DNA of 64,000 nt from an uncultured bacterium (GCA_965372795.1 CBDVDR010000007.1:1-64000), one strand, 5' to 3'. Shown: positions 38,459-58,727, counted from the first letter of the stretch. Notes: generated from the letters alone by a model not told the origin. Program-made: numbers and translations.

Positions 38459-38479
38459 ATTGGTATGTATTTAATTACC

Positions 38480-38508: not shown

Positions 38509-38555
38509 TATACAAACAGGACTAATTCATCTAGAAAAAACTAGAGGGGAATCAC

Positions 38556-39101
38556 ATGGACCTAATCCCAGAATTTAAGAAATTTGCAAAAAAAAGAGCC
38601 AAAGAAATAAAGGCAATGACTGATGTTCAATTTACTCCTGAAACTGCTCAGGTTAACATTGCAGGTCAACAACTTCAATTCAAATTAAATGTAGAGCAAA
38701 CAGCTGCTTGGAAATTGTATGTTGAATTAAATACAAGGATCTCTACTCAACCCTTATCCAAAAAAGACGGGCTATTAAGGGAAGCATTATCTTCTCTTTA
38801 TATAATATTTGGAGTTACAAGAGATATTTTAAAAGAAGCTGGACCTGGCGTAGCAATCGGTCCAAATTCTTTTGGATATTATGCTATGGAAATTCTCAAT
38901 CAAGTTATAAGACCGTTGTTAGCAAAATGGAATCATAAATTACTTAATTGTTAAAAACATAATAAATTAAATTTATCTCAATTTGAACATTAAAAAAAAT
39001 GGAATAAACAAATAGCTTTACGAAAAGAGATTGAAAAAACAAGAAAAGTAATAATTGAATATAATAAATCTTTAGCCATAATCGCAGGGATTTCAAAATA
39101 A
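38556..39101 (+). pseudogene. Helical protein of unknown function interrupted by two in-frame TAA (38952, 38991)
   Basis: Frame continues C*KHNKLNLSQFEH*KKWNKQIALRKEIEKTRKVIIEYNKSLAIIAGISK* and ends 6 nt before the next gene. Confidence 0.7.
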
Positions 39102-39107
39102 TAAGTT

Positions 39108-39584
39108 ATGATTAAAAGACAAGTTTTTATAAGCTTCCATCATAAAAATGAGCAATCTGTAGTAGACGATTTTGTGAATGCATTCAGCACTTACTATGAC
39201 GTTTTTACTGACAGATCTCTTGATAGAGCTGCAGATAGCGATGATACTGAATACTTAAATCAAGTATGTAGAGATGCCATAGAAGGTACAAGTATAACAA
39301 TCGTAATAATAGGTACTGAAACTGGTAAAAGAAAATTTGTAGACTGGGAAATTAAACATACTTTATTAAAAAAACATGGACTTCTAGCTATATTTCGACC
39401 AAACCTAGAAGATCACCTTACAAATTTGCCGAATCGCTTAATTGACAACATAAATTCAGGATATTCAAATTGGTATAAATACCCATCTTCTCCAGAAGAT
39501 CTGCGATTAATGTTAGAAAAAGCATACAATATAAACAAAGCTTTGATAGACAATAGTAGAGAAAAAATGAAAAGAAACCTATAA
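39108..39584 (+). CDS. ThsB-like TIR domain protein (MTH538/DUF1863)
   Basis: RQVFISFHH, TSITIVIIGTET..RKFVDWEI, GLLAI, LPNRL.DN. Confidence 0.85.
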   Translation: MIKRQVFISFHHKNEQSVVDDFVNAFSTYYDVFTDRSLDRAADSDDTEYLNQVCRDAIEGTSITIVIIGTETGKRKFVDWEIKHTLLKKHGLLAIFRPNLEDHLTNLPNRLIDNINSGYSNWYKYPSSPEDLRLMLEKAYNINKALIDNSREKMKRNL

Positions 39585-39616
39585 TGTTCTTAACGATAAG
39601 CCATTTGAGTATCTAA

Positions 39617-40261
39617 ATGAATATAAATAATTCGTATAAGTGGGATATTTTTATTAGTTACCATAGATTACCTGCAATTGAAAAATGGTTAAAAGAAATA
39701 TTAATTCCTTTACTCGAACTTCATCTACCAAGTTCATTGGGAAGAGAAGCAGATATATTCTGTGATGATAATATAAAAACTGGTAATCATTGGCCAAATG
39801 AATTGAGCGATGCATTAGCATATTCTAAAGTATTGTTACCAATTTGGACTGTACTTTATTTTCATCGAGAATGGTGTTTAAAAGAGTGGTTAACTATGGT
39901 CAACAGAGAATCTAAATTAAATAGTCTTTCAAGGGAAGAGCAATTTACATTAATCAAGCCGATAAGACTACTTGATGGAAATAAATATCCTATATTTGCT
40001 CAAAATACACAAAGTTTAACCTGTACTAATTATTTTACAACTTCTGAATGTTATAAACAAACACTCGAGTATATAAACCTAGAGAAAAAGATAACAGATT
40101 GGTGTAATAATGACTTAGGACAATCGATAGTTACTGCACCACCTTGTCAAGAATTTTGGTTAAATGAAGAATTTTCTAGAAATTCAATAAGAGCTTTAGA
40201 ATCACAAAGTGAAATGCAACCTATTGATTTAAACACAACACCAAGATTAGGTAATGAATGA
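39617..40261 (+). CDS. TIR domain protein (TIR_2/FxsC-like)
   Basis: WDIFISY, IFCD..IKTG..WP..L..AL..SKVL, YF..EWC..EW. Confidence 0.85.
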   Translation: MNINNSYKWDIFISYHRLPAIEKWLKEILIPLLELHLPSSLGREADIFCDDNIKTGNHWPNELSDALAYSKVLLPIWTVLYFHREWCLKEWLTMVNRESKLNSLSREEQFTLIKPIRLLDGNKYPIFAQNTQSLTCTNYFTTSECYKQTLEYINLEKKITDWCNNDLGQSIVTAPPCQEFWLNEEFSRNSIRALESQSEMQPIDLNTTPRLGNE

Positions 40262-42747
40262 GTAAAATAATTACATTCTATTCTTACAAAGGTGGAGTTG
40301 GTCGTTCCATGGCATTAGCAAACGTTGCGGTAAAACTATCAGGATTGGGACATAAAACTCTTATAATAGATTGGGATCTTGAAGCTCCAGGATTGGAATT
40401 CTATTTTAAAGAATATTTGGATTTAAGTAAAATAAAAACTAAACCAGGCATTATTGATATTTTAAAAGGAGATCATTCTACAAATTTAAAATCAACTAAA
40501 TGGACAGATTGCATCTCAACAATTAGTATTGATAATGCAACTCCATCCATACATTTTATATCATCAGGTAGCAACAAAGATAATTATTATAAAAAAGTAC
40601 AAGAATTTGATTTAGATAGTTTCTTTAATAAGAATAAAGGACAATCCCTGTTATACGAATTAAGAAATGAATGGTTAAATACTTATGACTTTATCCTCAT
40701 CGATAGTCGTACTGGCATTACAGACTATGGAGGAATTTGTACTATTCTTTTACCAGATGTAAACATACTATTTGTGACAACTAACGATCAAAGTCTTACA
40801 GGTAGTGAATATGTATTTGAAAAAGCGCATCAAATTAGAAAACAACTCCCTTACGATTATGAAAACATTATTTTTGTTCCAATATTAAGTAGATATGATG
40901 CTACTGAAGAATATCAAATTTCACAAGATTGGATAAAAAAAATAGATAAATCATTGTCTAAACTTTATGAGAAATGGACACCAAGGAACATTATAACAGA
41001 AGAACTAATTCAACAAACAAGCATTCCTTATATCCCATATTTTAGTTACGGTGAAAGACTTGCAGTTTTAGAAGAAAGTTCATCAATGACTAGATCTTTA
41101 AGCAATGCATATGAGAACCTTTCAGCATTAATTGCAAATAATTTCCAATATCTTGATGATATGATAAATAATCGAAGAAGTTTTTTAGCAAGAGCTTCAA
41201 AAATAAAAAATAAAGATGACTTAAGATTGAGACACACTGTTCCGCTTGTAAATTCTCCAGATTTAATCCATTTAAATTATGATAATCATCAAAAATGGTT
41301 AAGTACAAATGGTTCTGCAGGAGATCAAATGGATATAAAAAACAAAGAATTTTTAAATTTAGAACTTTTTGATCTTAATTTAGGCAAGTCCGAATTCAAC
41401 ACTTCAACAATGAAGAACTCCAATTTCACTTTTATTGATTTTTCTCATTCATCTTATAGATATAGTAATTTTTCGGGATCCAAATTTACATCTTCAAACC
41501 TATCATCTATAGATGGTTTTAATGCAATCTATATTAATGTCATATTTGATGGTGTAAGCGCTACACTATCCGATTTGTCTACTAGCAATTTAACAGATGC
41601 TATAATTAAAAACTCTGATTTTTTTCAATCAAATTTAGATGATTGTAATATGCAAAATTCCAAACTTCAAAATTCAAACTTTGATCTTGCTAGTTTTAAA
41701 AATTCTGATTTGAACTCTTCGAATCTCGAGCATTCAAATTTTTATAGATCTAATTTTGCAAATGCAAACCTTAGATCATGCATTTGTTATGATGCAGATT
41801 TTAAAGGGGCTAACTTCAGTGATGCTAATCTAGCATATGCAAAGGGATTAAAAGAATCTCAACTAAAAATGACAATATTAGATTTTGCAAAATTACCTGA
41901 TCATATAAATTTTAGTGATTCACTAAATTCTTTTGGTAAAAATTTAAAAAGTGTACAGAGTTCATTTTGGATAACATCTATAATTGCACTTACTTATTTG
42001 TTTGCTCTTATAAATTACTTAACAATCGGTAACTCTAAAGAGTTTATTATTTTTTTACCAAATCTCCAAAATTTCGCCATTCCACAAATAATTGCAATTA
42101 TAATTTCCATGTACTAGTCACAAAGTTTATGGGATAAAATATCAAAATTACCATGTAGTTTTCCTGATGGTAAAACTCTTCATGAAAAAGGAGATTCTAT
42201 TTTTTTTGTAGGAAATATTTTTCCTACGCTCCAGAGAAATAACATAAGAGCTAATCCATTTAGGAGTATTCTATTCATAAGTTTGTATTGGGGATCTACA
42301 TCTATAATCTATGTTTCTGGTGCTTTTGTCATTTATACATATCCTAATTTTTATCCAGATACTAATTTCACTTTTTCCTTTATAGTTGCAATTTCATTAA
42401 GTTTAATAGGAATTTTATCATATTTTTATTCTAATATAAAGTTAGCTAAAAATAATAGACCAAGTTTTATTTGTTCTCACGAAGTAGCATTATTTAATTT
42501 GCCAAAAAAAATGTTTAAATATGAAATGTTAGATTTATTAGATAATTATGGAAGAATCTTAAGTTTAAGAAAAACAATTAGTATCAATGATGATATAGTG
42601 TGGAGTGTAAGGTTAGAGAGTAATTTTCAGGTACAAAAAGTGATAAAAAGTCTTGATCGTAGTAATTTTCATAATAAAGTGATAAGAGCTATTGGTATAC
42701 CGATTGGAGAGGAATTATCTAAAACTCTATATAATAGAGTCAAATAA
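40258..42747 (+). pseudogene. KGGVGR-variant ParA/MinD ATPase-pentapeptide repeat-TM-RRM-like protein with one in-frame TAG (42115-42117)
   Basis: FYSYKGGVGRS, DWDLEAPGL, YDFILIDSRTG, IPYIPYFSYGE; pentapeptide repeats. The frame stays open after the TAG and joins the 42283..42747 ORF. Confidence 0.8.
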
Positions 42748-42810
42748 TTTCATGATACACGATCTAAGGATTATATCTTAGCTTACCATAATTGATAGAA
42801 AAGTTGTCTA

Positions 42811-43566
42811 TTACTTCAACTTTATGACGTCAATTATTTCATCACCTTCATCTAAGTTAATTAACCTATCTCCATCTAATATTAAAACATCAGAAGAACC
42901 GATCCAGATACTAGTTGAATATGTATAATAGTCATCAACTTGATATAAACTTCCATCTAACATCTCTAATATTGAACCATCTCCTTTTACTTCATAAATA
43001 TATGCCTCTTCAACATCGCAAGAAGTTGCATAACTAGCTTCTTTTAATATATCACACCTATAAGATCTCTTACCTTCGATCCATATTTTCCATTGGTTGC
43101 TTACTCTGTAAAGTACTGCAGTCTTTCGATATCCTATATATCCTAAATATCCAGAAGTTATTTCAACAATAGCACCATTATCCAAAGTAACTACATCTTT
43201 AATATCAGAGTCTACTTTACTAATATAAGCAATATCTGAATTTGGAGATCCTTTTATATTGGTTGGATTACTTTTCTTCTGATTCACTATATTTTTTCGA
43301 AAGATTTCTGAGCATTCTTTATATCCCATCTCATAAATACCATTCATCAATTTATTTAATTTATTTTTCTCTAAGTCAGTTAATTTTCTTAATCCGATAG
43401 AATTACTCATAATCGTATCATTTTGAATTATTGATATAAAATTAAATTCAAATTGAGTAGTATTTTGAGCTAAACTAATTTGTACAATAAAGATAAGTAT
43501 AGTTAGTTGAATGTAGATATGCCTGATTAAGAAAAATAGTGATTTATTCTTTTTCATAAAATACAC
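42811..43566 (-). CDS. Secreted hypothetical protein
   Basis: Long ORF with signal-like N-terminus and beta-rich C-terminal half. Confidence 0.6.
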   Translation of the reverse strand: MYFMKKNKSLFFLIRHIYIQLTILIFIVQISLAQNTTQFEFNFISIIQNDTIMSNSIGLRKLTDLEKNKLNKLMNGIYEMGYKECSEIFRKNIVNQKKSNPTNIKGSPNSDIAYISKVDSDIKDVVTLDNGAIVEITSGYLGYIGYRKTAVLYRVSNQWKIWIEGKRSYRCDILKEASYATSCDVEEAYIYEVKGDGSILEMLDGSLYQVDDYYTYSTSIWIGSSDVLILDGDRLINLDEGDEIIDVIKLK

Positions 43567-43729
43567 CCTTATTTTTATAAGATTTAGCCTAATTTATTGA
43601 AAATATACTAAGAAGTCAATATAGTTACAATATAACAAATTACCTGAAGATAAGACCATTTTTGAATAACTTTATATCAAAAAAAAAAAATTAAATTTAA
43701 CTTATATAGATCGTTTTATAACGAATCTA

Positions 43730-43814
43730 ATAGTTCGCAATTCGTACAATACGGGGAGCTTAAGTTTTTCTACTCAACAACTTACTAAAATTCAATTTGT
43801 ACGGATTGCGAACT
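43730..43814. repeat. att-like junction 1 (arm-core-IHF-like box-inverted arm)
   Basis: agttcgcaattcgtacaa...ggggagctt...tcaacaacttac...ttgtacggattgcgaact (17/18 inverted repeat). Confidence 0.85.
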
Positions 43815-43915
43815 TATGTTATAATTGATGATCAAGTCTAATTATTGTATATTATATTTTTGAAATTGAATGATTGAAATGATAATTAGTTTTATGATTA
43901 ATTTATATCCATGAG

Positions 43916-44548
43916 GTGTGTATGGAAAACAGTGAATTGATTCTAGAATATTTAAAGATATTTCTTACTTGGCCGGTTATTGGAGGTGTATTACTATTAA
44001 TTTTTATTTTCAATTTCAAATCTTCCATTGTAGGAATATTTAACAGAATAAGGAGTGCTAAGGTTGGTAATGTAGAATTTGAAGCCCCACTTATTCAAAA
44101 AGAGCTGAGTGATATAAAATCAGATCATACATTACTTGATAGTAATGTTATAGTGAACGATTCAAATGATAACTCAATTGATGAACAGACTTATAAGGAA
44201 AAATATGAAACCTTATTGGGGTTATATAACGATATTCAATTAGAATTTTATTTTGAAATGTTACTTAATATTTTATTTGGCACACAATTAAGATTATTAC
44301 AATCTATAAATAATATCGGAGATGATGGTATTGACTTAGATCGTATTTATCCTTTCTATAATGAGAATCTCTCTAAGAGCAAATTAACCAATTGGGGAGT
44401 CAATGATTTTTTGAGAATCTTAATTAATTACAATATAATTAATAAGAATGAATCTACGAATAAATATCAAATTACTCCAAATGGAACTAATTTTTTGTCA
44501 TATGTTGAAAAAAATCATAACCATAAATTTCAATCATTACAGTTTTAA
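43916..44548 (+). CDS. Hypothetical membrane-anchored protein (sole gene of segment B)
   Basis: N-terminal TM (TWPVIGGVLLLIFIF); C-terminal wHTH-like LFGTQLRLL...YQITPNG..FL.Y. Confidence 0.7.
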   Translation: MCMENSELILEYLKIFLTWPVIGGVLLLIFIFNFKSSIVGIFNRIRSAKVGNVEFEAPLIQKELSDIKSDHTLLDSNVIVNDSNDNSIDEQTYKEKYETLLGLYNDIQLEFYFEMLLNILFGTQLRLLQSINNIGDDGIDLDRIYPFYNENLSKSKLTNWGVNDFLRILINYNIINKNESTNKYQITPNGTNFLSYVEKNHNHKFQSLQF

Positions 44549-44578
44549 TATTATTTATCTATTAACAGCTTGAACCTT

Positions 44579-44667
44579 ATAGTTCGCAATTCGTACAATA
44601 CGGGGAGCTTTATTAATTCTCTTTCATATCAACAACTTACAACATTACAGATTGTACCTTTTCGACT
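44579..44667. repeat. att-like junction 2
   Basis: 32 nt identical to 43730-43761, then tatcaacaacttac and a degenerate arm attgtaccttttcgact. Confidence 0.85.
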
Positions 44668-44754
44668 AATCAATTTCTAGAAAATCTGAAACTTATATAA
44701 TAATCTTATTTTGTAAGTAGGAACGAAAATTAATCTTCCATCTGTTAGAAATAA

Positions 44755-44982
44755 TTGTTTTTCCTGTAGTTTGTGAACTGGTTCATCTAGGAAGTAGTAT
44801 TCACCCTCGGTCGCTGCATCGAGCATCCCGATAATGTTAAGCTGGGCTGAATTTCCTGCACCCTAAGGTCCCATGACGGTGACGAAGTCACCATCGTAGA
44901 TTTCCAATTTAACATGCCTGAGAACGTATGTGTTCACGCCACCGTTCTTATAGCTCTAGGTTATGTTGTCAAGTCTGATCAT
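44755..44982 (-). pseudogene. Truncated ABC ATP-binding gene
   Basis: MIRLDNIT*SYKNGG...GDFVTVMGP*GAGNSAQLNIIGMLD...GEYYF: two TAG stops, degenerate Walker A, truncated near junction 2. Confidence 0.8.
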
Positions 44983-45094
44983 AATGTCAATATCCTTCGA
45001 AAGTAATTCTTTGTTCTATTCATGTCGTATCGCGTCAATCGGATTGGCGATTAACGCGACGTTATGGACAGTCGCCTAGTGTGCATAATTTTGT

Positions 45095-47470
45095 TTATTC
45101 AGAACGAAGAGCGTCCACAGGATTAGATCGCGCTGCCCGGAAAGCTTGCGAGCCGACCGTTACAGAAGCCACCATGAGCGCAATCAGAGTTGGTAGCAAA
45201 AACAGCCAGACGTTAAGTTCGATGCGGTAAGGGAATTGTTCCAACCAACCATTCAGCAGATACCACGCGATAGGCCAGGCAACCAAGCTGGATAAAGCCA
45301 CCAGAGTTATAAACTCCCGGGTCATCATCATGACCAACTGCTGGATAGAGGCACCAATCACTTTGCGAACGCCAATTTCCTTGGTTCGTCTCTCAGCCGC
45401 AAAAGCGGACAAACCCAAAAGACCCAGGCAGGCGATGAACACACCCAATGCGGAGAAGACGGAAAACAAATACATCAACTTGCGATAATCATCATAACGC
45501 TCGGAAATAAGGTTATCGAGATACTTCGCAACAGGTGCCTTTTCTGAGAATACTTCTTCGTACACCGAAGCAATTTGTGACTTCATTTGTGCTTGATTCT
45601 CGTCTGGCAATTCCAGGGCCAACACCCGCCCTATTGTATTTCGATGGAGAATCACTGTTGGCTGTATCTCGCTATTGAGAGGGTGCGCGTGAAAGTCCTT
45701 CACCACCCCAATCACAGTGAAGATTCTATCGGGTCTCATTAGCTGGAAACCAATCGGCTCCTTGATCCCCATTGTTTTAACCGCGGTTTCGTTGATCAAG
45801 ACCATGTTGGGGGTGTTTGAGTTTGCTTCGCTATCCCATGACTTGCCAGCAACGAGTTCTAATTTAAGCGTTTTGAAGTAATCGTTGTCTCCGGCAAGAA
45901 AATTAAACATTACTTTCTTGCCTTCGTCGTAGCTCTCAGGATGAAATGACAACAGGCTTGTCCTATTCTCGCCGGGGACCGCAGTGGCTATAGTAAGGTT
46001 TGACAGCCCAAGCCGGCTGAGGTCATTTTTGAACAGGACTTTTTTATCATTGGATGCTTTGTCGGGGAACTCATACAAAAGGATATTCTCGTGACTAAAC
46101 CCAAGGTCAGCCGCTCCGGCAAATTCAATCTGCTCGTTGATGCCAAAAGTGAGACACATGAGGATGATAGCACAGGTTGCCTGAAACGCAACCAATACAC
46201 GCCTTAGATTAAATCGACCGGTTGACGCGATAGCACTGTTTTTTAAAACCTCCTGTGGATGAAGTCGGGAAAGTACAATTGCCGGGTAACTTCCTGATAT
46301 CAGACCTACCAAAAGAATCAAACTCGGTCCGGCCAGCCAGACTATCGGACTTTCCATAAGACCGATTGAGAGAGGTTTGCCAGCATACTGTTCCATGGCT
46401 GGGATTGTTAATTCAAAAACCACCAATCCAGCCGCCATCGCTATAGTAACCATAATGACGGACTCAGCTAAAAATTGATGCGCCAACTGCCATCTTCCGG
46501 CACCAAACACTTTGCGAATCCCAACCTCTTTGGTTCGATGAGCCATACGAGCAGTAGTGAGATTGATATAGTTCATGCAGGCTATTACCAAAAGCAACAT
46601 GGCGATGCCTGAGAAAATATATATCGTCTCCATTGAACCCCTGGGATCAAGTTCGTTGCTTAGGTCTGGATTCAAGTAAATCGATAGCAAAGGTTGTAGT
46701 TCCAGTTTAAATTCATCAGCCTTGTCTCCCAGATGAACCGTAAGCAAATCCGGAATCTTAGCTTCAATAGATGCCAGATCGACGTCTTCAGACAAAAGCA
46801 AGTAGGTGTAAGCTTTACCCCACCAACCTTCCCAGGTGGTAAGATCCTCTCCCATAGTCTCAAGGGTTGCATAGGAAGCAAGGAAATTAGTTTTGAGCTG
46901 GGTGTTGTCCGGCATGTCACTCATTACGCCGGTAATAATCATTTCTATATCGTCATGAATTTTGACTGTTTGACCAATCGGATCACTGTTCGGGAAGAAG
47001 CTTTCACTGATACTCTGTGATATTATCAAGCTATTTGGGCTCAAGAGAGCGGTCGCTCGGTTTCCGTTTATGAGCGGAATAGAAAAGACCTCAAGCATTT
47101 CGGGATCGACCATCAGGAATTGAGTTTCTACAATAAACTTATCGTGTCCGAACTCTATTTTAACGTCCTTGTCCTGGTAAATTCTGGCCTGTTGTTCAAT
47201 TTCCGGCATAGTTTCTTTCAGGGCCGGTCCGGCTGGGTGCATGATATTGGCCGTTGAGATCATATCATCATCACGTTCCCAAAAGCAAACTACCCGGTAG
47301 ATATTATCGGCGTTCGGATAATGAGATTCGTAGCTATACTCGTATGAAACATACGCCAATATCAAAAGACAAGAACCCAAACCCAACGCGAGACCAAGGA
47401 TGTTGATACAAGTATAGAGCTTTTGTTTTCTTAGTGACCTCAAAGCGGTTCTCAGGTAGTTACGAATCAT
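45095..47470 (-). CDS. ABC transporter permease (duplicated MacB/FtsX type)
   Basis: NYLRTALRSL, IACMNYINL, KEVGIRKVFGA, RRTKEIGVRKVIGAS, NPVDALRSE. Confidence 0.93.
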   Translation of the reverse strand: MIRNYLRTALRSLRKQKLYTCINILGLALGLGSCLLILAYVSYEYSYESHYPNADNIYRVVCFWERDDDMISTANIMHPAGPALKETMPEIEQQARIYQDKDVKIEFGHDKFIVETQFLMVDPEMLEVFSIPLINGNRATALLSPNSLIISQSISESFFPNSDPIGQTVKIHDDIEMIITGVMSDMPDNTQLKTNFLASYATLETMGEDLTTWEGWWGKAYTYLLLSEDVDLASIEAKIPDLLTVHLGDKADEFKLELQPLLSIYLNPDLSNELDPRGSMETIYIFSGIAMLLLVIACMNYINLTTARMAHRTKEVGIRKVFGAGRWQLAHQFLAESVIMVTIAMAAGLVVFELTIPAMEQYAGKPLSIGLMESPIVWLAGPSLILLVGLISGSYPAIVLSRLHPQEVLKNSAIASTGRFNLRRVLVAFQATCAIILMCLTFGINEQIEFAGAADLGFSHENILLYEFPDKASNDKKVLFKNDLSRLGLSNLTIATAVPGENRTSLLSFHPESYDEGKKVMFNFLAGDNDYFKTLKLELVAGKSWDSEANSNTPNMVLINETAVKTMGIKEPIGFQLMRPDRIFTVIGVVKDFHAHPLNSEIQPTVILHRNTIGRVLALELPDENQAQMKSQIASVYEEVFSEKAPVAKYLDNLISERYDDYRKLMYLFSVFSALGVFIACLGLLGLSAFAAERRTKEIGVRKVIGASIQQLVMMMTREFITLVALSSLVAWPIAWYLLNGWLEQFPYRIELNVWLFLLPTLIALMVASVTVGSQAFRAARSNPVDALRSE

Positions 47471-47494
47471 GAATGTACACTCACTTTCTAAAAC

Positions 47495-47662
47495 CTATTC
47501 ATATTTTAGTGATTCAATCGGATTAGACGAAGCTGTCTTTATCGCTTGATAGCTATCAACAAAGCGAGCAATGCCGTTAGCCAGCCCGACTATATTGAGT
47601 AGAGTAATACCGTCCTGACGACGGGTCGATCTCAACGCGATCTTGAGAAAGTTCTTAAGCAT
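47495..47662 (-). pseudogene. 55-aa in-frame N/C-terminal fusion remnant of an ABC permease
   Basis: MLKNFLKIALRSTRRQDGITLLNIVGLANGIARFVDSYQAIKTASSNPIESLKYE*. Confidence 0.75.
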
Positions 47663-48341
47663 GACGAGTCTTTATGTCTTCTGTTACAACAGCGCCATCG
47701 AAAAGGTTGATGGTACGACTGCAGTAGTCAGCGAATGCCTGAGAATGAGTGACCATTACGATCGTAGTGCCTTCTTCATTGAGTTTCGTCAGGCAGGTCA
47801 TCACATCCTGTCCGTGGGCTGAGTCAAGATTGCCGGTTGGTTCATCGGCGAGAATCAGTCTTGGATTGGCAACAACTGCTCTTGCAACAGCCACACGTTG
47901 TTGTTGACCACCTGATAACTGTTGTGGGAAATGCTTTGAACGGGCAATGATCTCAAACTCTTTAAGTGCCTTGTTGACGCGTGTTCTTCTCTCAGATGCG
48001 GCTATCCCGAGATAGAGAAGAGGCAGTTCGACATTCTCAAAGATGTTCAGTTCATCAATCAGGTTAAAATTCTGAAAGACAAACCCGATGTTGTTCTTGC
48101 GAAGACTGGCTCTTTGACGTTCGGTATATTTGGAGACTTCAGTTCCGAGCAAATGATATTCTCCCCCGGTTGGGTTATCCAGAAGTCCAAGAACATTCAG
48201 CAGAGTTGATTTGCCACAACCAGATGGTCCCATAATTCCGACAAACTCACCTTCTGCGATGTGGATTCCAATATCGTTTAGTGCCGTTGTCTCGATGTCT
48301 TCGGTGCGGTAAGTTTTTTGCAGGTTGACGGTACGAATCAT
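47655..48341 (-). CDS. ABC transporter ATP-binding protein (MacB/LolD-like)
   Basis: GPSGCGKST, LSGGQQQRV, ILADEPTGNLD; start MIRTVNL after GGAG. Confidence 0.95.
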   Translation of the reverse strand: MIRTVNLQKTYRTEDIETTALNDIGIHIAEGEFVGIMGPSGCGKSTLLNVLGLLDNPTGGEYHLLGTEVSKYTERQRASLRKNNIGFVFQNFNLIDELNIFENVELPLLYLGIAASERRTRVNKALKEFEIIARSKHFPQQLSGGQQQRVAVARAVVANPRLILADEPTGNLDSAHGQDVMTCLTKLNEEGTTIVMVTHSQAFADYCSRTINLFDGAVVTEDIKTRHA

Positions 48342-48378
48342 GGTTATTACTCCTTTTAACATTGTCATTATATTTTTC

Positions 48379-49647
48379 CTATTTAAATACGAGTTGGTCA
48401 ATTTCGCCAAAAGTTTCATAGGAGGAAGTAACCACTTTTTCCCCCGGTTTAAGACCTTCAAGTACTTCGTAGTAGATTGAATTTGAACGCCCCAATCGGA
48501 TAACACGTTTTTTGGCCAGATTGTCTGTCTCATCTACAACATAAACCCATTGACCACCCGTGCTTTGCCAGAAAGCTCCACGCTTAATCAGAATTGCCTC
48601 GGAGGAGCCACCCAGATTAAGGCGGATACGAAGTGTTTGGCCACGTCGGATTCCTTTTGGAGCACTTCCGATAAATTGCAGGTCCACTTCAAAGCGACTG
48701 TTAACAACCTCAGGGTAAATTTTCTCAACCAGCAGTTCAATGTCTTCATCATCAAAAGTAGAGGTTGCTTTTTGTCCGACCTGTACTCTTGAGAGATAAT
48801 GCTGGTCCACCTGGACTCTCGCTTTGAAACCTACCGGGATATCTATTCTCCCCAACTGTTCACCACGATTCTTAGTTTGTCCAATTTCTGCATTCAACGA
48901 AGTCAACTGCCCGTCTATCGGGGCTCGTAACGTAAGATTATCGAGTTTTTGTTTTACCATATCAAAATTGTCTTCCATGCGTGTCAATCCCTCTTGAAGT
49001 TGACCAACCTGAGTCTCCCTGAAAACAGAATCTTGTCGAGCATTTTCAACTGTTAACTCAAACTTAGCGGCGTAGTACTCAAATGTCTCTTTGGCTTCAT
49101 CGAACATTCTCACCGAGATTAACTCCTTTGTCAGAAGCGCTCGAAATTCTTCGTAAGTACGCTTTTTCTGAGATAATTGGTACTTGAGATCAAGCAGTTG
49201 TTCGGCCATTCGAAGCCGATTCTGCTGCATAGCTAAACGAGTGTTTCGTAAGTTATTCGATTGCTGAAAAAGCTCTGCTTCACGAAACATGATATCCAAA
49301 AGAAGATTAGTATTAGCCAGTCGCAGAATAGGGTCGCCTTTGTTGACATAAGAACCTGCCTCAACAAATACCGAGTCCACCTGTCCACCTTCAGTTGCAT
49401 CCAGAAATATCGTCCGAAGAGGAATCACTGTGCCTGTTTCAGGAATGAACTCCTGAAATTCACCTACGGTTACATCTGAAATAGAAATACGTTCGATATC
49501 GACACTGAGTCTGGAACTGTGATCTCCAAAAATTAGATTGTATAGAATTAAAATAGTCGCCAGTCCACCCACTGATAAGTAAGCAATCATTTTGATTGTC
49601 CAGAATTTCCGTTCGATCAGTCTATCCATACGAGAGATGTCACTCAT
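48379..49647 (-). CDS. Efflux membrane-fusion (HlyD/RND adaptor) protein
   Basis: N-terminal TM, EGGQV lipoyl half, coiled coil, RAPIDGQL, EVLEGLKPGEKVV. Confidence 0.9.
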   Translation of the reverse strand: MSDISRMDRLIERKFWTIKMIAYLSVGGLATILILYNLIFGDHSSRLSVDIERISISDVTVGEFQEFIPETGTVIPLRTIFLDATEGGQVDSVFVEAGSYVNKGDPILRLANTNLLLDIMFREAELFQQSNNLRNTRLAMQQNRLRMAEQLLDLKYQLSQKKRTYEEFRALLTKELISVRMFDEAKETFEYYAAKFELTVENARQDSVFRETQVGQLQEGLTRMEDNFDMVKQKLDNLTLRAPIDGQLTSLNAEIGQTKNRGEQLGRIDIPVGFKARVQVDQHYLSRVQVGQKATSTFDDEDIELLVEKIYPEVVNSRFEVDLQFIGSAPKGIRRGQTLRIRLNLGGSSEAILIKRGAFWQSTGGQWVYVVDETDNLAKKRVIRLGRSNSIYYEVLEGLKPGEKVVTSSYETFGEIDQLVFK

Positions 49648-49724
49648 ACACTATTTCTCACAATCTATGTTGCAGTTCAATATTTTTAAGACGGCCAAAT
49701 AGCGTCTCGGTTGCTAAAAGACAT

Positions 49725-49833
49725 TACAATAATCGTGCCAGTTCAAGTAAGTCGTTGTTATACAACAAAACTAATGGTATTGCGGTGGGGTTTTACTGCC
49801 CGCTTATGGAGGTTTGCTGTACGAATGCGTACA
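49725..49833 (-). promoter_or_regulatory. Sigma54 promoter, IHF-like site and TGT-N10-ACA enhancer
   Basis: Minus-strand CTGGCAC-gatta-TTGTA (49725-49741); TAACAAcgacTTA (49748-49760); palindrome TGTACGaatgCGTACA (49818-49833). Confidence 0.75.
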
Positions 49834-50006
49834 CTAAATCCCTTGCCCCAAAGCAACTATCGGATTACTTTGTATGTAAGTCACTGTTAATCAACGATCT
49901 GAATTGTTTTCTCGTGATGGTATGTTTTCTGCTTTCATCTTTACATTGAAAGCAACAACGATTAGAAATGCACAAGAAGTGAAAGTGACAATGGAGTGTG
50001 TGACGA

Positions 50007-51392
50007 ATGAGCGAATTGAATTTTAGTTCAAGCCGAATCCTTGTAGTCGATGACGACCCTGATGTGCTTTTGGCGGCACGACTTCTGCTTAAGCAGCATG
50101 TCGCCGAGGTAGTCACCGAACCTGATCCCAATCGAATCCAAGAACATCTTGGCACGAGCGATTTTGATATCGTGATGTTGGATATGAATTTTACACGGGA
50201 TCAAACGAGCGGTGAAGAGGGGCTCCATTGGCTCAAGCAGATTTTGAAATGGGATCCCGAGATGGTCGTAGTAATGATCACTGCATACGGTGACGCCGAA
50301 ATTGCCGTTCACACGATCAAGAGCGGAGCGACTGATTTTGTTCTAAAGCCGTGGCAAAATGAAAAGCTGCTTGCCACGATGTTCTCCTCTCTGAAGCTTC
50401 ACCACTCACAAAAAGAGGTTGAGAATCTTAAGCAGTCTCGACGACAGTTAAGTGCCGACATGGATCAGCCGTTTGGGGATTTTATTGGTTCAAGTAAGGC
50501 AATGAAAGAGGTGATCGCCACTATCGCAAAGGTGGCGGTAACCGACGCGAACGTTTTGATAACAGGGGAGAACGGGACTGGTAAAGAATTGGCCGCAAGG
50601 GCAGTTTACCGACGATCGCTTCGTGCTGGTGAAGTATTTGTCAAAGTTGATATGGGATCAATAGCCGAGACGCTGTTTGAATCGGAGCTGTTTGGTCATG
50701 TAAAGGGAGCTTTCACCGATGCGAGAGAAGATCGCGCAGGCAGATTTGAGATTGCATCAGGGGGGACGCTTTTCCTCGACGAAATCGGAAATACTCCGAT
50801 CACACTACAGGCTAAACTATTGACCGTTTTGCAAAGTCGCCAGGTTACCAGAGTAGGTTCAAATAGTACAACACCAATTGATATTAGACTAATATCAGCC
50901 TCGAATATGCCGCTCGAGGAATTGGTCGAAAATAAGCTCTTTCGCCAGGATTTGCTCTATCGAATCAATACCATAGAGATTGTTTTACCGCCACTCAGAG
51001 AGAGGATTGATGATATTGATGATCTGGCAGAGTATTATCTCAAGATGTATGCGGGGAAATATAAGAAGAGCGTGAATGGTATCACGCCTGCTGGAATTAA
51101 TAAGCTCAAATGCCAACCCTGGCGCGGCAACATAAGAGAGCTTCAGCATACGCTCGAACGAGCGGTTATAATGAGCGAGTCGGATCAGTTGACACCGGAT
51201 GATTTCCCGTTTAGTCAAAGTGGTGATTTGGCTGACTCAAAACTTATGGCGAGTCATAATTTGGAAAAGATTGAGCGGACTATAATTGTTCGCGTACTCT
51301 CTTTGAATGACAACAATATCAGCCATGCTGCCGAAGTATTGGGACTCACACGCACATCACTTTATCGTCGTATGCAAAAACATGGTCTTTAA
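50007..51392 (+). CDS. NtrC-family sigma54 response regulator
   Basis: Receiver (VDDD, LDMNF), GENGTGKE, ELFGHVKGAFTDA, FRQDLLYR, Fis-type HTH. Confidence 0.95.
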   Translation: MSELNFSSSRILVVDDDPDVLLAARLLLKQHVAEVVTEPDPNRIQEHLGTSDFDIVMLDMNFTRDQTSGEEGLHWLKQILKWDPEMVVVMITAYGDAEIAVHTIKSGATDFVLKPWQNEKLLATMFSSLKLHHSQKEVENLKQSRRQLSADMDQPFGDFIGSSKAMKEVIATIAKVAVTDANVLITGENGTGKELAARAVYRRSLRAGEVFVKVDMGSIAETLFESELFGHVKGAFTDAREDRAGRFEIASGGTLFLDEIGNTPITLQAKLLTVLQSRQVTRVGSNSTTPIDIRLISASNMPLEELVENKLFRQDLLYRINTIEIVLPPLRERIDDIDDLAEYYLKMYAGKYKKSVNGITPAGINKLKCQPWRGNIRELQHTLERAVIMSESDQLTPDDFPFSQSGDLADSKLMASHNLEKIERTIIVRVLSLNDNNISHAAEVLGLTRTSLYRRMQKHGL

Positions 51393-52728
51393 GCATTTTA
51401 GAATACAAATAATCTCGCGCGTTCTCATTTTATGTGTGACTATTTTGGCTGCAGCCTGGCTCCTGAGTGCAACTGAAAAGTATGCCACGACCGGGATGGT
51501 TATCCTATTGTTCATTCTACAGGTGATCTTTCTCATTCGATTTGTTGAAAAAACAAATCACACGATGGCAGAGTTCCTGCAAGCGATTGAATACGACGAT
51601 TTTACTCAGTCTTTCGGGAATGTTGCAAGCGGCAAATCGTTCGACGAGTTGAATCAGGCCTTTGTTAAAGTTTCTGCGAATTTCCGAGAGGTTCGTCTGG
51701 GGAGGGAGGAAAATTACAGATACTTGCAGACGGTCGTTCAGCATGTTGGAGTCGGCATGGTAGCATTTCAGGAGAGCGGAGAGGTCGAACTTTTTAACTC
51801 TACCGCCAAGAAGATACTGCAATTGGCTTCATTGAAGAATATCAATGACCTTAAAATGAAAAGTCCGGAACTTTTAGAACGTATTAAATTTCTCAATCCG
51901 GGAGAGCGCGATCTGGTTCGAGTCACAATTGATAAAAACTTGGTACAACTGTCTCTTTTTATGACTATCCTTAGGATGCGCAATCGCAAAATAACTCTGG
52001 TGTCGTTTCAGAATATCTCCGCTGAGCTTAACGAAAAAGAGATGCAGGCATGGCAGAATCTTATCAGGGTGTTCACTCACGAAATAAAAAACTCTTTGAC
52101 GCCGATCAGTTCTTTGGCTGGAACTATAGAAACTCTCTTAGTTCCAATTACGTCGCAACTAAACGTGAAGAATCGGGAGAGCATTACTGATATCTCCGAG
52201 GCTCTTACGACAATCAAGAGTCGTTCAGAAGGCTTACATGAGTTTATTAATGCTTATCGTGATCTGACAAACCTTCCCCAACCTGTGTTTGAATCGTTCA
52301 AGGTGACCTCTATGTTTGAGCGGGTTGGACAGCTTGTGAAAGATCAAATTCAATCTGGGGGGATTAATTACTGTGTAGAACTATCGAATCAAACCCTCTC
52401 GGTTACAGCAGACAGCAAAATGATCGAACAGGTGTTGATCAATCTGATCCTTAACTCAATCCAGGCTTTGAATGGATGTGAAAAACCGAAATTAAAAGTG
52501 TGTGGGTTTGTTGATTATCAGAATCGAGTAACAATTACTGTCGAAGACAATGGCCCGGGGATTGCGAATACGGCGATTGACAAAATATTCGTACCGTTTT
52601 TTACTACTAAGAAAACCGGCTCAGGAATTGGCCTAAGTCTGTCAAGGCAAATCATGCGTCTTCACAAAGGTGAACTAACTGTTTCGTCTGAACCAGATAA
52701 ACGCACAATCTTAACCATGCGCTTCTAA
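51382..52728 (+). CDS. Sensor histidine kinase (NtrY-like)
   Basis: Start MVFKHF overlaps the regulator stop; two TMs, PAS-like, HEIKNSLTPI, DNGPGI, FFTTK..GSGIGL. Confidence 0.92.
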   Translation: MVFKHFRIQIISRVLILCVTILAAAWLLSATEKYATTGMVILLFILQVIFLIRFVEKTNHTMAEFLQAIEYDDFTQSFGNVASGKSFDELNQAFVKVSANFREVRLGREENYRYLQTVVQHVGVGMVAFQESGEVELFNSTAKKILQLASLKNINDLKMKSPELLERIKFLNPGERDLVRVTIDKNLVQLSLFMTILRMRNRKITLVSFQNISAELNEKEMQAWQNLIRVFTHEIKNSLTPISSLAGTIETLLVPITSQLNVKNRESITDISEALTTIKSRSEGLHEFINAYRDLTNLPQPVFESFKVTSMFERVGQLVKDQIQSGGINYCVELSNQTLSVTADSKMIEQVLINLILNSIQALNGCEKPKLKVCGFVDYQNRVTITVEDNGPGIANTAIDKIFVPFFTTKKTGSGIGLSLSRQIMRLHKGELTVSSEPDKRTILTMRF

Positions 52729-53109
52729 GATGACCATTTGAGCCACAATTGATTATCTGCTTAGGAATTCTCTGCCAGCATAATCACGACAAGATGCAAT
52801 AAAATCTACCATAAAGCCTGTGCTATTTAAATACCGTTTCAACATTCTTGAATTCAGTTTCCATCTGACATAAAGAAAAATGTGTCTTAGATTTCAACTA
52901 CACTTGTCCGGATTGTTTGAAGACATTCAATTCTTTATTCCTAAATTTCATTATATCAACTATGCTTATGCCGCAGTTCTAAATTAGTCCACGATGGCCC
53001 GCCATTATATTTATTATTTCCGAATAGTGGTTCAAATCCTTTTGCTTGCCATATGTGTCCCTAATTTAAAAGGATATTGAAGTAATAACATTGTTAGAAT
53101 ACATCAAAA

Positions 53110-53195
53110 AGTTGCGAAATTCGTCTAATTGGGGGAGCTTTATAATCATAAAAATTTGAACCACTTACACAATAGCTTTATCGCACATTCGAACT
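53110..53195. repeat. att-like junction 3
   Basis: agttgcgaaattcgtctaatt-gggggagcttt...tgaaccacttac...cacattcgaact. Confidence 0.75.
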
Positions 53196-53373
53196 TTAAG
53201 CCACTCTTTCTCGTTATTCCACTATCAGTTAAGGAAAGTTGTATAGCTTTTTAACAGCTTGTACTTTTACTCTTTAATCCTGTTCAATAAATAGACTTGA
53301 CAAGTCTACGCATTTTTTTAATTTAACTTTGTACTTATAAAATACTACTCAATTTTTTATAAATCGAAAACAG

Positions 53374-54159
53374 ATGAAAGGTTTTAATATGAAGTACTTA
53401 TTTATTCTTGTTGTTCTTTGCCTGCTGATAATTGGCTGTTCTGATAATCCCGTCAAAAGCAGTAACGGTTTTATTTCCGTAGAATCCTTTGATGCTCCTG
53501 CTCCGGAAGGCATTGAGCATTTATATTTACATGTTCTTGAAGTATCAACTCATCATTCAGATGACGGTTGGATAGTTTTATCGGAACCTGATACGGTCAT
53601 CGATTATATGGAATTGATAAACGGTATAACTGTTTTGTTAGCCGATAGCGTTTCTCTCCCTGTTGGTGACTACGAGCAAATGAGACTGTTGTTGTCTGAC
53701 TCCAATGAAATTGTTATTGAAGGCACAACTTATGACTTAACTACGCCAAGTGCGCAACAATCCGGGATTAAACTCAATCTGAATTTTTCTGTTGAAGAGA
53801 ACCAACTGATAGAAATCTATGTTGATTTTGATATTTCAAAATCAGTTATCAGTGCCTCATCAAAGTATATACTCACTCCGACATTCCGTGCTTTCAAACA
53901 AATTTTATCTGGCACTATTGCCGGAACAGTCGTTGATGCTCTTGGCGACCCGCTTGAAAATATAACGATTGACGTTGCTGGAGTAGAATATGCAACATCA
54001 ACAATTACTGATGCTGAAGGCAATTATCTTTTGATACTTCCTGAAGATACCTATGATATTACTGCAACAGCTGAAAATCTGACAGCTAATAAGACTTATA
54101 CCGGCGTAGAGTTAAATCCTCTTGATGAATTGACAGGATTTGATTTTATAATGGAATAA
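53374..54159 (+). CDS. DUF4382 lipoprotein with carboxypeptidase-regulatory-like domain (sole gene of segment D)
   Basis: IIGC lipobox, DAP, LP.G.Y.Q.RL, TPSAQQSGIKL, DFD..KSV, GTIAGTV. Confidence 0.85.
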   Translation: MKGFNMKYLFILVVLCLLIIGCSDNPVKSSNGFISVESFDAPAPEGIEHLYLHVLEVSTHHSDDGWIVLSEPDTVIDYMELINGITVLLADSVSLPVGDYEQMRLLLSDSNEIVIEGTTYDLTTPSAQQSGIKLNLNFSVEENQLIEIYVDFDISKSVISASSKYILTPTFRAFKQILSGTIAGTVVDALGDPLENITIDVAGVEYATSTITDAEGNYLLILPEDTYDITATAENLTANKTYTGVELNPLDELTGFDFIME

Positions 54160-54177
54160 TGATAAAAATAATAGATC

Positions 54178-54206
54178 AAACCGCCTGATTTTCAGGCGGT
54201 TTTTTT
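54178..54206 (+). terminator. Intrinsic terminator
   Basis: aaaccgcctga-tttt-caggcggttttttt. Confidence 0.85.
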
Positions 54207-54325
54207 GTCAATTAATATAAAAGCTAAACTCTTTGATTGTTGATCAGGTTACCTATAAGAGAAGAGCAAACTTCATCCACAATTTCTTAGATTTTCTCAA
54301 AAAAACTGCTGATCGTTGCTCAACC

Positions 54326-54357
54326 AGTTACAAAACTCGTCCAATTGGGGGAGCTTT
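54326..54357. repeat. att-like junction 4 (probable outer attR)
   Basis: agttacaaaactcgtccaatt-gggggagcttt, followed by a small hairpin and T-tract and no IHF-like box. Confidence 0.75.
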
Positions 54358-56375: not shown

Positions 56376-58727
56376 CTACGGAATATACGGGATAGCACCC
56401 ATGTCATTTCGCGAATTATCAGGGTCGTTATACATCGGATCAGGGTCACCTGTATTTATGCAGGGTGATAAAGGTTGCAGTCCATAATCAAACAGCATAG
56501 GATCGTCAAACAGTGGATCTGAAATGATATTCCCCACTCCGGCAGTTGCTCCACCATACGGACTCGGGCTGTCCCAGATGCAGTTGTACCTGAGTCTATC
56601 CGGATTGTAGACACCTTTTATTGCAGCGATTGTACCACCCACAATAATATTATTGAATACCTGAGGGGTGCCATTAACTGTTGAAATGCCTATTCGACCG
56701 GGACTTATAATAGTGTTGTTGTGGATGCTCGCAGTATAACCCAAGTCAACTCTGATTTCCCCGTAAGCATAATTGTTATATATCAAATTATAGCTGATCG
56801 TCACACCGTGACCAAAATCAAGAAGCACAGCACCGCCATAACCAACCGGTAAACTTTGATTATCATAGATTATATTGCGTGTTACGATAGAGTAATTACA
56901 ATTGGATATAGTAACACCACCTCCGTAGTGATGATCCGAACTGGAATTATTATGCATGATATTCCCTTCAATTCGTACCGTTGTCGCACGACAATAAATC
57001 CCTGAAAGACCGCCTCCGGAGATGTCAAATCCTTCAATCACCGAACCGACCGGTTCAAGACTATTCAAACTTATGACCGGCAGGGTGTTGTCAGAGGCTA
57101 CCAAAAATGTCTCATACGGACCGTTCTCACTAAGAAGAATAAGTTGTTTGCGAATGAAATTTATTGTCTCTACATACGTTCCCGGCGCTACAAGAATAGT
57201 ATCCCCGTCAAAGGCGTCGTTAATAGCCGACTGGATGGTCGAATACTGGGATGGCACTCTCCTTGGCGCTGGTCGGTATGAAGGACATACCGGAAGATCG
57301 GCACCGTTTAAGAACAAATAACTCACCAAATAAGTAACATCACTAATATTTACTTTGTCATCGGAACTGCCATTGACATTGGCTTCTTCCAAACAGCATA
57401 TGTCATCACCATTCAAATACAACCATTCAATAAGCCTGGTCAGATCAGAAATAGTAACATCTTCCTGATCATCACAGTTAACATTACCGGTGAAGTCTTC
57501 GCAACAACTTGCACAAACATCTCCAGTACCGTCTCCTTCAGAGTCAAGCTGGTCGGGATTGAAATCCTCAGGACAGTTATCAATCGGGCAGGTTGAAGCC
57601 AAAAAGCCCGGGTCACCAAATCCATCACCGTCCGTATCGGTACACTCGTCACATTCATCACCGATTCCGTCGTTATCAGCGTCACTTTGAGAGTTATTAG
57701 CTATCTCCGGACAGTTATCACAAATATCACCTCTACCGTCATTGTCAATATCCTCCTGCAGAGGGTTAGTCTGGTCGGGACAATTATCGCAGGCATCACC
57801 AAAATCATCTGAATCTGAATTTGTCTGGTTGCTGTTAAATGAATCGGGACAGTTATCACACAGATCGCCATTGCCATCATTGTCAATATCGTTCTGAGAC
57901 GGGTTTGAATCGGCGGGGCAGTTATCACAAACATCTCCATACTCATCACCGTCACTGTCGCTCTGTGATGGATTAGCATCTTCGGGACAGTTGTCGCATA
58001 GATCGCCATACCCATCTATATCACCATCAGTTTGTGCATTATTTGAATTTTCCGGACAGTTATCGCACAGATCGCCAATATTATCAAAATCGATATCAGC
58101 TTGGTCGGGGTTATAGTCGTTCTGGCAGTTGTCACACATTCCGGCAAACCCATCTCCATCCGGGTCGCTTTGTCCGGCACACTTGTCAATCAAAAAACAG
58201 TGCGGTCCGTCCCAATCAGGGTTAACATCTCCAGTATTAGTTGACCAGGTCCAGTTTCCCGCCGGAGGATAATGGCTCGAATCAAGACATATCTGCTTAT
58301 CGTGAAAGATAGTATCAATAGGGCCAACCGAAATCGTGTAAACAATTTCGTTGAATCCATCAGGAATGCCCGTTTCGAATATTAGAAATCCGCCAAACCC
58401 AATCGTATCCGCTCCAATTCCATCATTACTGAATTCATTTATGAAAGTCTGAGTATACATTTCGGATGTTATGACACCCGTCTCAGTCGCCGTCGTAGCA
58501 CTCCATTGAGCATCGTCCGGGGAGTAAACTCTGAAGCCAATTGTATGACCCTTGATGTTCTCACCAGAATTATTGATCATTCGGATGTGGAAAGCGATTG
58601 TTTCATTAGTGCCAACATGATCTCCCGCGTATGAACCATCGACATGATCAAGTGACATCCAGTTTTGAGCGGCAAGGCTCACAGAGAGACTAAGCATAAG
58701 CATGGTAGATAAAATTAAGCGAATCAT
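56376..58727 (-). CDS. Secreted modular protein: TSP type-3 repeats, dockerin-like module, beta-helix domain
   Basis: Repeated D.DGD..GD.CDNCP...N..Q; CCEDFTGNVNCD...ISDL; VPSQYSTIQSAI...VAPGTY.E; SPCINTGDP...DMGA. Start MIRLIL after GGAGG. Confidence 0.85.
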   Translation of the reverse strand: MIRLILSTMLMLSLSVSLAAQNWMSLDHVDGSYAGDHVGTNETIAFHIRMINNSGENIKGHTIGFRVYSPDDAQWSATTATETGVITSEMYTQTFINEFSNDGIGADTIGFGGFLIFETGIPDGFNEIVYTISVGPIDTIFHDKQICLDSSHYPPAGNWTWSTNTGDVNPDWDGPHCFLIDKCAGQSDPDGDGFAGMCDNCQNDYNPDQADIDFDNIGDLCDNCPENSNNAQTDGDIDGYGDLCDNCPEDANPSQSDSDGDEYGDVCDNCPADSNPSQNDIDNDGNGDLCDNCPDSFNSNQTNSDSDDFGDACDNCPDQTNPLQEDIDNDGRGDICDNCPEIANNSQSDADNDGIGDECDECTDTDGDGFGDPGFLASTCPIDNCPEDFNPDQLDSEGDGTGDVCASCCEDFTGNVNCDDQEDVTISDLTRLIEWLYLNGDDICCLEEANVNGSSDDKVNISDVTYLVSYLFLNGADLPVCPSYRPAPRRVPSQYSTIQSAINDAFDGDTILVAPGTYVETINFIRKQLILLSENGPYETFLVASDNTLPVISLNSLEPVGSVIEGFDISGGGLSGIYCRATTVRIEGNIMHNNSSSDHHYGGGVTISNCNYSIVTRNIIYDNQSLPVGYGGAVLLDFGHGVTISYNLIYNNYAYGEIRVDLGYTASIHNNTIISPGRIGISTVNGTPQVFNNIIVGGTIAAIKGVYNPDRLRYNCIWDSPSPYGGATAGVGNIISDPLFDDPMLFDYGLQPLSPCINTGDPDPMYNDPDNSRNDMGAIPYIP

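Follow-up and report, generated by a model that had tools for sequence, protein, structure and literature searches.

Stacked islands at a tRNA-Asn gene of an uncultured bacterium and the box and displaced inverted arm at the ends of their integrase-less islets

We describe a stack of islands at the 3' end of a tRNA-Asn gene in a 64,000-nucleotide stretch of DNA from an uncultured bacterium (GCA_965372795.1 CBDVDR010000007.1:1-64000; hereafter, the window). The stack is composed of one autonomous island, which encodes a large serine recombinase (LSR), and three islets that lack an integrase. As the first-pass annotation of this DNA had noticed, the islets have a distinct common end consisting of a core, a box and a displaced inverted arm, and we find that this arrangement is conserved in related bacteria. 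Unlike the islets, the autonomous island has a compact site of ~51 bp without the extension made up of box and arm. These data are consistent with a model, held here with moderate confidence, in which LSRs built the array by accretion of islands at tRNA-Asn, the box is the distal motif of the right half-site, and the arm is an extra, inverted half-site.

The integration target, tRNA-Asn(GTT) (33900-33973, + strand; ARAGORN, and 70 bits in the Rfam tRNA model), is the sole tRNA gene that ARAGORN reports in the window. By sequence reading and with a repeat finder, we located a core, ggggagctt, at five positions: within the tRNA gene (33967-33975) and at 43753-43761, 44602-44610, 53132-53140 and 54348-54356. 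At the junctions, the repeat finder returned four 38-nt copies of one repeat (D2), as well as repeats of 49 nt (D5, 88%) and 36 nt (D8, 75%). The ~25 nt 5' of each core outside the tRNA resemble, without being identical to, the T-arm and acceptor end of the tRNA. The five cores divide the region into four units, each of which terminates in a pseudo-tRNA 3' end and ggggagctt: island 1 (33976-43761, 9.8 kb), islet 2 (43762-44610, 849 bp), islet 3 (44611-53140, 8.5 kb) and islet 4 (53141-54356, 1.2 kb). A Pfam scan of the window's open reading frames (ORFs) found a recombinase domain in island 1 and none in islets 2, 3 and 4. What we observe is thus a tandem of islands with copies of the target's 3' end at their borders, some of the islands lacking a recombinase, and the array itself belongs to a known kind, that of LSR-built tandem islands with and without an integrase.

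The LSR gene of island 1 (33934-35478, - strand) encodes 514 aa with three recombinase domains in Pfam (Resolvase, E = 9e-42; Recombinase, 5e-16; Zn_ribbon_recom, 2e-14). The ORF crosses the attachment (att) site (33934-33975), and since its final codons (...PRQDSNLRPAD) come from the complement of the tRNA, integration alters the C-terminal tail of the protein; in a circular form of island 1, the tail would be read from the opposite end of the element. Close relatives of this LSR were found neither in genome nor in viral contig collections, the best among 61 relatives being 35% identical.

The att sites follow the register expected of such an enzyme. Counting positions from the first base 3' of the core's central AG, the T-loop motif of tRNA-Asn, AGTTCGAG (33951-33958), begins 20 nt 5' of the central AG (33971-33972), and AGTTCG starts at -20 in all three tRNA-type ends (tRNA-Asn and two others). 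In the element arms examined, it starts at -25 or -26 in 8/8, one arm having two mismatches. Rutherford et al. (2013; PMC3783163) place the motif bound by the zinc-ribbon domain of the LI integrase at positions 16-24 in half-sites of the element site (attP) and at 11-19 in those of the bacterial site (attB). As the shift of AGTTCG, ~5 bp nearer the centre in the tRNA than in the arms, fits this rule, we take the left arms to be element-side (P) half-sites and the tRNA T-loop to be the bacterial (B) half-site. On the other side of island 1, the right (P') half-site (33976-33996, + strand) carries the inverted motif gcgaact, which ends at +24, the canonical position. When the two ends of island 1 (43732-43761 and 33976-33996) are joined at the core, they form a symmetric site of ~51 bp with imperfect inverted half-sites, in which the motif starts at -25 on the left and ends at +24 on the right; this putative site has the size of a canonical LSR attP. 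With three recombinase domains, a probable attP of ~50 bp and a core in common with attB, island 1 is built like an LSR element. It resembles the Listeria A118/LI-type integrases, which, in the part of the published work drawn on here, have an attP of ~50 bp, a shorter attB and a distal motif lying 5 bp inward in attB (PMC3783163). Compared with those 5 bp, the shift in the tRNA-Asn array amounts to 5-6 bp at the left half-site and ~6 bp at the right one, and, unlike the A118/LI sites treated there, the islet termini have a further half-site, the third, in inverted orientation 27-30 bp past the box (PMC3783163).

That addition is seen at all three internal junctions. Junction 1/2 (43732-43814, + strand) has its left (P) half-site at 43732-43752, the core at 43753-43761, the box at 43774-43785 and the arm at 43793-43814. 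Junction 2/3 (44581-44667, + strand) has the same parts at 44581-44601, 44602-44610, 44627-44640 and ~44646-44667, its arm, ttcgact, being short by one base. At junction 3/4 (53110-53195, + strand), a generic left half-site from 53110 is followed by the core (53132-53140), the box (53157-53168) and the arm tcgaact (53189-53195); a second AGCT lies at 53174-53177, and the arm ends exactly 20 nt beyond this second AG. The box starts at +16 at junction 1/2, which is the register of the native tRNA flank, at +22 (for its 12-mer) at junction 2/3 and at +20 at junction 3/4. Junction 1/2 is homologous to junction 2/3, but its box lies 6-7 nt nearer the core. The outermost junction (54326-54356, + strand) consists of a generic left half-site and the core. 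It has no arm and, as the first-pass annotation had it, no box by the strict pattern; after 21 nt it continues into a T-run/ATTGCA flank resembling the tRNA-Asn flank in other genomes. A crossover 3' of the box, in place of the core, was considered and rejected: island 1 directly abuts the tRNA core, and the outermost junction does not fit such a position.

The arms end at 33996 on the tRNA side and at 43814, 44667 and 53195 at the internal junctions, 21 nt from the core beside the tRNA and 53, 57 and 55 nt from it elsewhere. Sequence reading and the repeat finder thereby reproduce the coordinates of junctions, arms and boxes that had been annotated; the distances given earlier, 22 and 54-58 nt, agree with the measured 21 and 53-57 nt if the core ends one base earlier. 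The inverted motif ends at +24 beside the tRNA and at +56, +60 and +58 at the three internal junctions, a displacement from the canonical +24 of 32, 36 and 34 bp; in other genomes and loci, the displacement is mostly 36-37 bp. The earlier description of an arm displaced by about three helical turns therefore holds as to the displacement (32-37 bp), which does not amount to exactly three turns (3.0-3.5 turns).

The same module is present in relatives, at 10 more junctions spread over 7 other genomes and 2 metagenome contigs from this order. The layout is not due to chance: a pattern for the left arm and core matched 22 times, in 16 of 160 genomes from the order, and 0 times in the reversed control, and a stricter version of it picked out 11 metagenome loci, 8 of them new. 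Several genomes carry arrays of two to three such repeats 3' of tRNA-Asn. Box and arm follow the core in the genomes G004, G015, G099, G132 and G136 (where the arm is degenerate) and in the metagenome loci L161 and L162, and they lie directly 3' of a genuine tRNA-Asn in G101 and G103. With the window's three, this makes 12 modules with an arm, plus L165, which has the box only; these copies are kin and not independent trials, so the effective sample is small. Across the 12, the first base of the box 12-mer falls between +16 and +24 and the last base of the arm between +56 and +64 (at +60 or +61 in 7/12), and box end and arm end are 27-30 bp apart. Homology among G015, G099, L161 and L162 ends exactly at the arm's outer edge. 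A combined pattern of core, box and arm run over the order gave 6 forward matches, all of them already found, against 12 in the reversed control. This pattern alone is unspecific; its specificity lies only in its position at cores. Conservation at homologous junctions, on which the first-pass annotation had staked its proposal, is thus what we find. The DUF4153 gene 3' of the array is not adjacent to tRNA-Asn in relatives, so no empty site can be defined by synteny.

The lack of an integrase is likewise shared. Ten related arrays contain 89 ORFs of 200 aa or more, of which 74 were scanned; excluded were 14 that overlap a longer ORF on the opposite strand and 1 that runs across the join between two loci. 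A recombinase domain is absent from all 74, though smaller recombinases or directionality factors could escape this size limit; one of them is a Mutator transposase. Five further ORFs adjoining modules also have no recombinase domain. Because 0/74 and 0/5 ORFs carry one, integrase-less islets are the rule in these arrays. No LSR gene was found next to islet-type modules in the metagenome contigs. Lambda-like arm sites of a tyrosine integrase were rejected as an identity for the arms, as there is no such gene in the window's array or in related arrays.

If the box belonged to the islets, it should be confined to them, and it is not. A strict box-like 12-mer occurs at 18 of 101 distinct tRNA-type or element-arm junctions. 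At boxed tRNA-type ends, it starts at +15 or +16 in 8/8, with no arm in register; one such end (G125) has, by eye, an arm-like heptamer with one mismatch 41 nt past the box. After element arms, the box starts at +16 in three cases (the second repeat of G099, G035 and junction 1/2), at +20 in one and at +22 to +24 in five, and a further occurrence at +8 is probably due to chance. As a homologous box stands in tRNA-Asn flanks without islets, the box is not islet-specific. It belongs to the ancestral tRNA-Asn flank, the target side, which also serves autonomous elements. The box is found in two registers ~6 bp apart, the inner one in contexts of the attB/attR type and the outer one (+20 to +24) at islet termini. 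Because these two registers mirror the shift of AGTTCG on the left, we assign to the box the role of distal recognition motif in the right half-site. We dropped as a leading explanation the idea that the box is a decayed copy of the element arm, for which nhmmer gave no match and tests with position weight matrices (PWMs) were weak.

The flanks of tRNA-Asn in relatives hold other arrangements as well. A second flank type is found in many of them (L062/G024, L063/G021, L050/G023, L118, L122 and L132) and shows a hairpin, a 'ttgtatgtggg' stretch and a direct AGTTCGA ~85-95 nt 3'; in G024, this flank is the 3' terminus of an LSR from a different family, which shares 25% identity with that of island 1. 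A third type, which begins caaaat and continues into a hairpin (L038, L039, L117, L131 and L137), probably marks a second tRNA-Asn gene copy and not a target. In native-type flanks (L123, L142, L048, L076 and L144), a core-like ggagagct ends a conserved stretch ~45 nt 3' of the box, possibly the trace of a yet older junction. L097 (G070), L125 (G130) and L049 (G091) have a second copy of tRNA-Asn, partial or degenerate, within a few hundred bases 3' of the gene.

The arm extends well beyond its heptamer. At junction 1/2, 43793-43814 is, by eye, an inverted copy of the left half-site (43732-43749; 17 of 18 bases), and its local alignment score is 32 against its own left half and 12-22 against the left halves of other junctions. 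More generally, the 22-26 nt that end at the arm resemble, on the opposite strand, a half-site of the tRNA type or the element type. An AGCY lies exactly 20-21 nt inside the arm end in 5/12 modules (junction 3/4, G015, G099, L161 and L162), which is the spacing of the attB type. At junction 1/2, the left half and the arm both belong to the island-1 type; in G099, G101 and G103, both belong to the tRNA type. The arm goes with the outer register of the box: 11/12 boxes at +20 to +24 have an arm, one of them degenerate, compared with 1/11 at +15 or +16, namely junction 1/2. Inside island 1, no spare inverted site is present among the 25 longest of 320 inverted pairs. Beyond the arm nothing is conserved, and only one inverted half-site is seen, not the two of a dimer-binding accessory site as in the Sin recombinase system discussed below.

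Collectively, we favour a model in which LSRs would have stacked islands at the 3' end of tRNA-Asn, with island 1, the sole autonomous member, adjoining the tRNA as the newest arrival. Each joint would consist of the upstream island's left half-site, which is the pseudo-tRNA 3' end, the common core, and the left end of the islet that follows. The box would occupy +15/+16 in the native flank, on the attB side, and a place ~6 bp further outward at islet termini, on an attP-type side, and an islet terminus would combine a P'-type half-site with a spare inverted half-site. We infer that an LSR binds both box and arm, and the arm may derive from LSR-bearing ancestors as an accessory or 'spare inverted' site. 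At junction 1/2, the spacer shorter by 6 nt may have recreated an attB-type site, into which island 1 would then have inserted beside islet 2.

Several observations weigh against this model. No LSR-bearing element with the generic left arm was found, which leaves islets 3 and 4 with no enzyme assigned to them, and we know of no LSR that employs a third half-site. Left half and arm do not co-vary at junction 3/4 or in G015 and G132. The two box registers may be only two sequence lineages that differ by one indel. By eye, the box agrees with the inverted left motif at ~6-7 of 9-10 positions at islet ends and at fewer in the native flank, and in the PWM tests, similarity between box and element arm had p values from 0.017 to 0.7. 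Finally, the IHF (integration host factor) consensus is exact in 5/11 inner-register boxes (by eye) and in 3/13 islet boxes, which would fit a bending protein.

Islet cargo is also shared between genomes. Islet 3 (GC 40-47%) holds genes for ABC export and for a two-component system, with a MacB/FtsX permease, an ABC ATPase, a HlyD-type protein, a sigma-54 response regulator and a histidine kinase among the products. Over 7.7 kb (45016-52737), it shows 89.7% identity to G047:C37:347-8081, in a genome from another family of the same order, and the next-best protein match is 43%; this identity points firmly to horizontal sharing of islet cargo. In G047, the 7.7-kb block lies ~600 bp from a degenerate pseudo-tRNA end with a terminator-type flank. 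The homology stops inside islet 3 on both sides and not at the att modules, and a fragment of an ABC-transporter ATPase gene with neither start nor end (~44700-44900, - strand) adjoins junction 2/3. Because the homology ends within islet 3 and this truncated gene lies beside the junction, we regard the islets as mosaics, and the data suggest that islet 3 combines an older and a newer export operon. To the right of the 7.7-kb block, the two genomes diverge; by eye, a stretch of ~45 nt seems to be oppositely oriented in 8082-8700 of G047:C37 (L159) and in 52738-53140 of the window.

Such mosaicism is also what one would expect if box and arm were fossils, that is, collapsed older junctions (such as an attR, or a spare att in inverted orientation left by an LSR element since lost) with no present function. 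The apparent conservation would then reflect a single ancestor and the circumstance that only former attB flanks ever adjoin a core. We consider this possible but on balance unlikely. Pseudo-tRNA ends and degenerate cores are abundant in the tRNA-Asn flanks of relatives, the arm is degenerate in G136 and absent in L165, and G101 and G103, two species of one genus, have the module directly at the tRNA, as if it had been inherited vertically. Against decay, however, the arm heptamer and the box are kept across subfamilies while the sequence between them is unalignable (alignments judged by eye), and spacer lengths are kept within 3-4 bp. The homology that ends at the arm's outer edge does so as at the boundary of a functional site, and at several junctions the arm and its left partner match in type.

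The first-pass annotation had proposed that IHF binds the box and that non-autonomous cassettes thereby use a bent att site. In its general form, a protein of the IHF or HU/IHF-like kind would bend the box and return the displaced arm to the core, making the att sites of non-autonomous elements dependent on a host factor; we judge this improbable. The exact match of 44627-44639, at junction 2/3, to the consensus WATCAANNNNTTR was confirmed by pattern search, and G004 and G136 supply the other exact islet boxes. The position of the box and its distance to the arm are conserved, and in 5 modules it is flanked by a pair of convergent AGCY cores, which are 37-39 bp from one another. Of the two HU/IHF-family (PF00216) proteins encoded in the genome (G000 C29:4532-4801 and C11:88309-88575), one scores higher on IHF than on HU models. 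There is also a precedent among serine recombinases: in the portions of the work on Sin considered here, the resH/resF site comprises a crossover site, a spacer bent by HU or IHF at a site in its middle, and a further recombinase-binding site II (PMC2764113), and this is the closest precedent for bending by IHF. Sin, however, is a small resolvase that acts on two res sites on one supercoiled circle, with site II binding a dimer, unlike the large integrase-type recombinase and the single extra half-site of the tRNA-Asn array (PMC2764113).

The properties of the box do not support an IHF site. The consensus occurs 10 times in the window compared with 9.14 expected, no excess over chance, and most islet boxes are not exact. 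The best-kept box positions (ACTTAC) lie partly in N positions of the consensus and partly past it, and its WATCAA is often broken. The best IHF-model scores of the two paralogues, 93 and 87 bits, lie below the NCBIfam cut-offs of 111-115, and neither passes any cut-off. A box is present in native tRNA flanks that have no arm to return, and a U-turn at the box would, judging from the part of the LSR-DNA model referred to above (PMC3783163), set the arm alongside the core and not make it a collinear half-site. A bending protein may act at the box, but the box does not mark non-autonomous cassettes, and the IHF mechanism of the annotation is unsupported.

A related but more elaborate possibility is a regulated LSR site in three parts, comprising the crossover site, a box midway between convergent AGCY cores, and the spare half-site in inverted orientation. 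Synapsis or direction would be controlled in cis by a further recombinase subunit bound to the arm, perhaps with the aid of a bend at the box; islets without an integrase or directionality factor of their own could be moved by an LSR in trans; and small spacer changes, such as the 6 nt missing at junction 1/2, could switch a site between attP-like and attB-like states and so reopen the tRNA site. We think this quite doubtful. A host role, in which the inverted tRNA 3' end folds, as RNA or DNA, into a hairpin for tRNA 3' processing or transcription termination and islets merely carry copies of this flank, is very improbable: the arm is complementary to the adjacent tRNA-type end in G101, G103 and G099, and a run of eight T follows it in G101, but the other 11 modules have no T-run after the arm, the hairpin loop would be ~40 nt, the arm of junction 1/2 matches the element arm and not the tRNA, Rfam has no matching family there, and the arm is absent from most genuine tRNA-Asn flanks.

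In favouring accretion by LSRs we can compare the array with systems already described. In SCCmec, arrays are built by the Ccr large serine recombinases, and recombinase-less cassettes are bounded by repeated integration-site sequences; the target there is orfX/rlmH, not a tRNA. In Streptococcus thermophilus, Pavlovic et al. in 2004 reportedly described cis-mobilizable, integrase-less, att-flanked elements in tandem with an autonomous element, for ICESt1 and ICESt3, and explained them by accretion. That system employs a tyrosine integrase, unlike the tRNA-Asn array. A close counterpart is found in Dehalococcoides, where ssrA islands stand in tandem 3' of a tRNA-like gene, with direct repeats of the gene's 3' end at their borders (McMurdie et al., 2011; PMC3146451). 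According to the text on these islands as far as it is drawn on here, a serine recombinase of ~540 aa is encoded on the reverse strand next to attL, a conserved motif 5' of each repeat cannot be aligned with the target gene, and fifteen islands without an integration module are interpreted as cis-mobilizable elements joined by accretion; SCCmec composite islands and pseudo-SCC elements are named alongside them (PMC3146451). The tRNA-Asn array shares with these islands the tandem stacking and the presence of islands with and without an integrase, and it differs in having tRNA-Asn as the target and no second small recombinase (PMC3146451). A right-hand extension made of a box and an inverted half-site is not described in that text on the Dehalococcoides islands (PMC3146451). 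Limited literature searches yielded no earlier description of the extended islet terminus, with its spare inverted half-site and its box in two registers.

The locus bears on how LSRs are understood to work. These enzymes are valued as tools for their short sites, their independence of host factors and their recombination in one direction. Integration is expected to destroy attB, yet stacks of islands accumulate here and in the 16/160 related genomes. A spacer change of 6 bp offers a concrete idea of how a used site could become usable again, and the locus is a natural example in which both halves of a site appear to obey the attB/attP register rule. If the arm is functional, it would be, as far as limited searches show, the first accessory site described for the LSR class, and it would explain the spread of recombinase-less cargo between bacterial families.

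The remaining cargo is varied. Island 1 has a GC content of 26-32% in 1-kb bins, except for one bin at 37.5%, and encodes, besides the LSR, an IrrE/XRE module, two SpoVG-like proteins, a Rep protein, two TIR proteins and a ParA-like ATPase with pentapeptide repeats. Its genes at 39108-42117, for a ThsB-like TIR protein (158 aa), a second TIR protein (214 aa) and a 619-aa fusion of a ParA/MinD-like ATPase with pentapeptide repeats, look like an anti-phage defence set. Islet 2 has island-1-type half-sites at both ends, and its single ORF of 210 aa (43916-44548) matched no Pfam family significantly. In islet 4, one lipoprotein gene (53374-54159) encodes a DUF4382 and a CarboxypepD_reg domain. Outside the array, tandem repeats of 69 nt at 57706-58154 lie inside the gene for a secreted protein of 794 aa with thrombospondin type 3 repeats.

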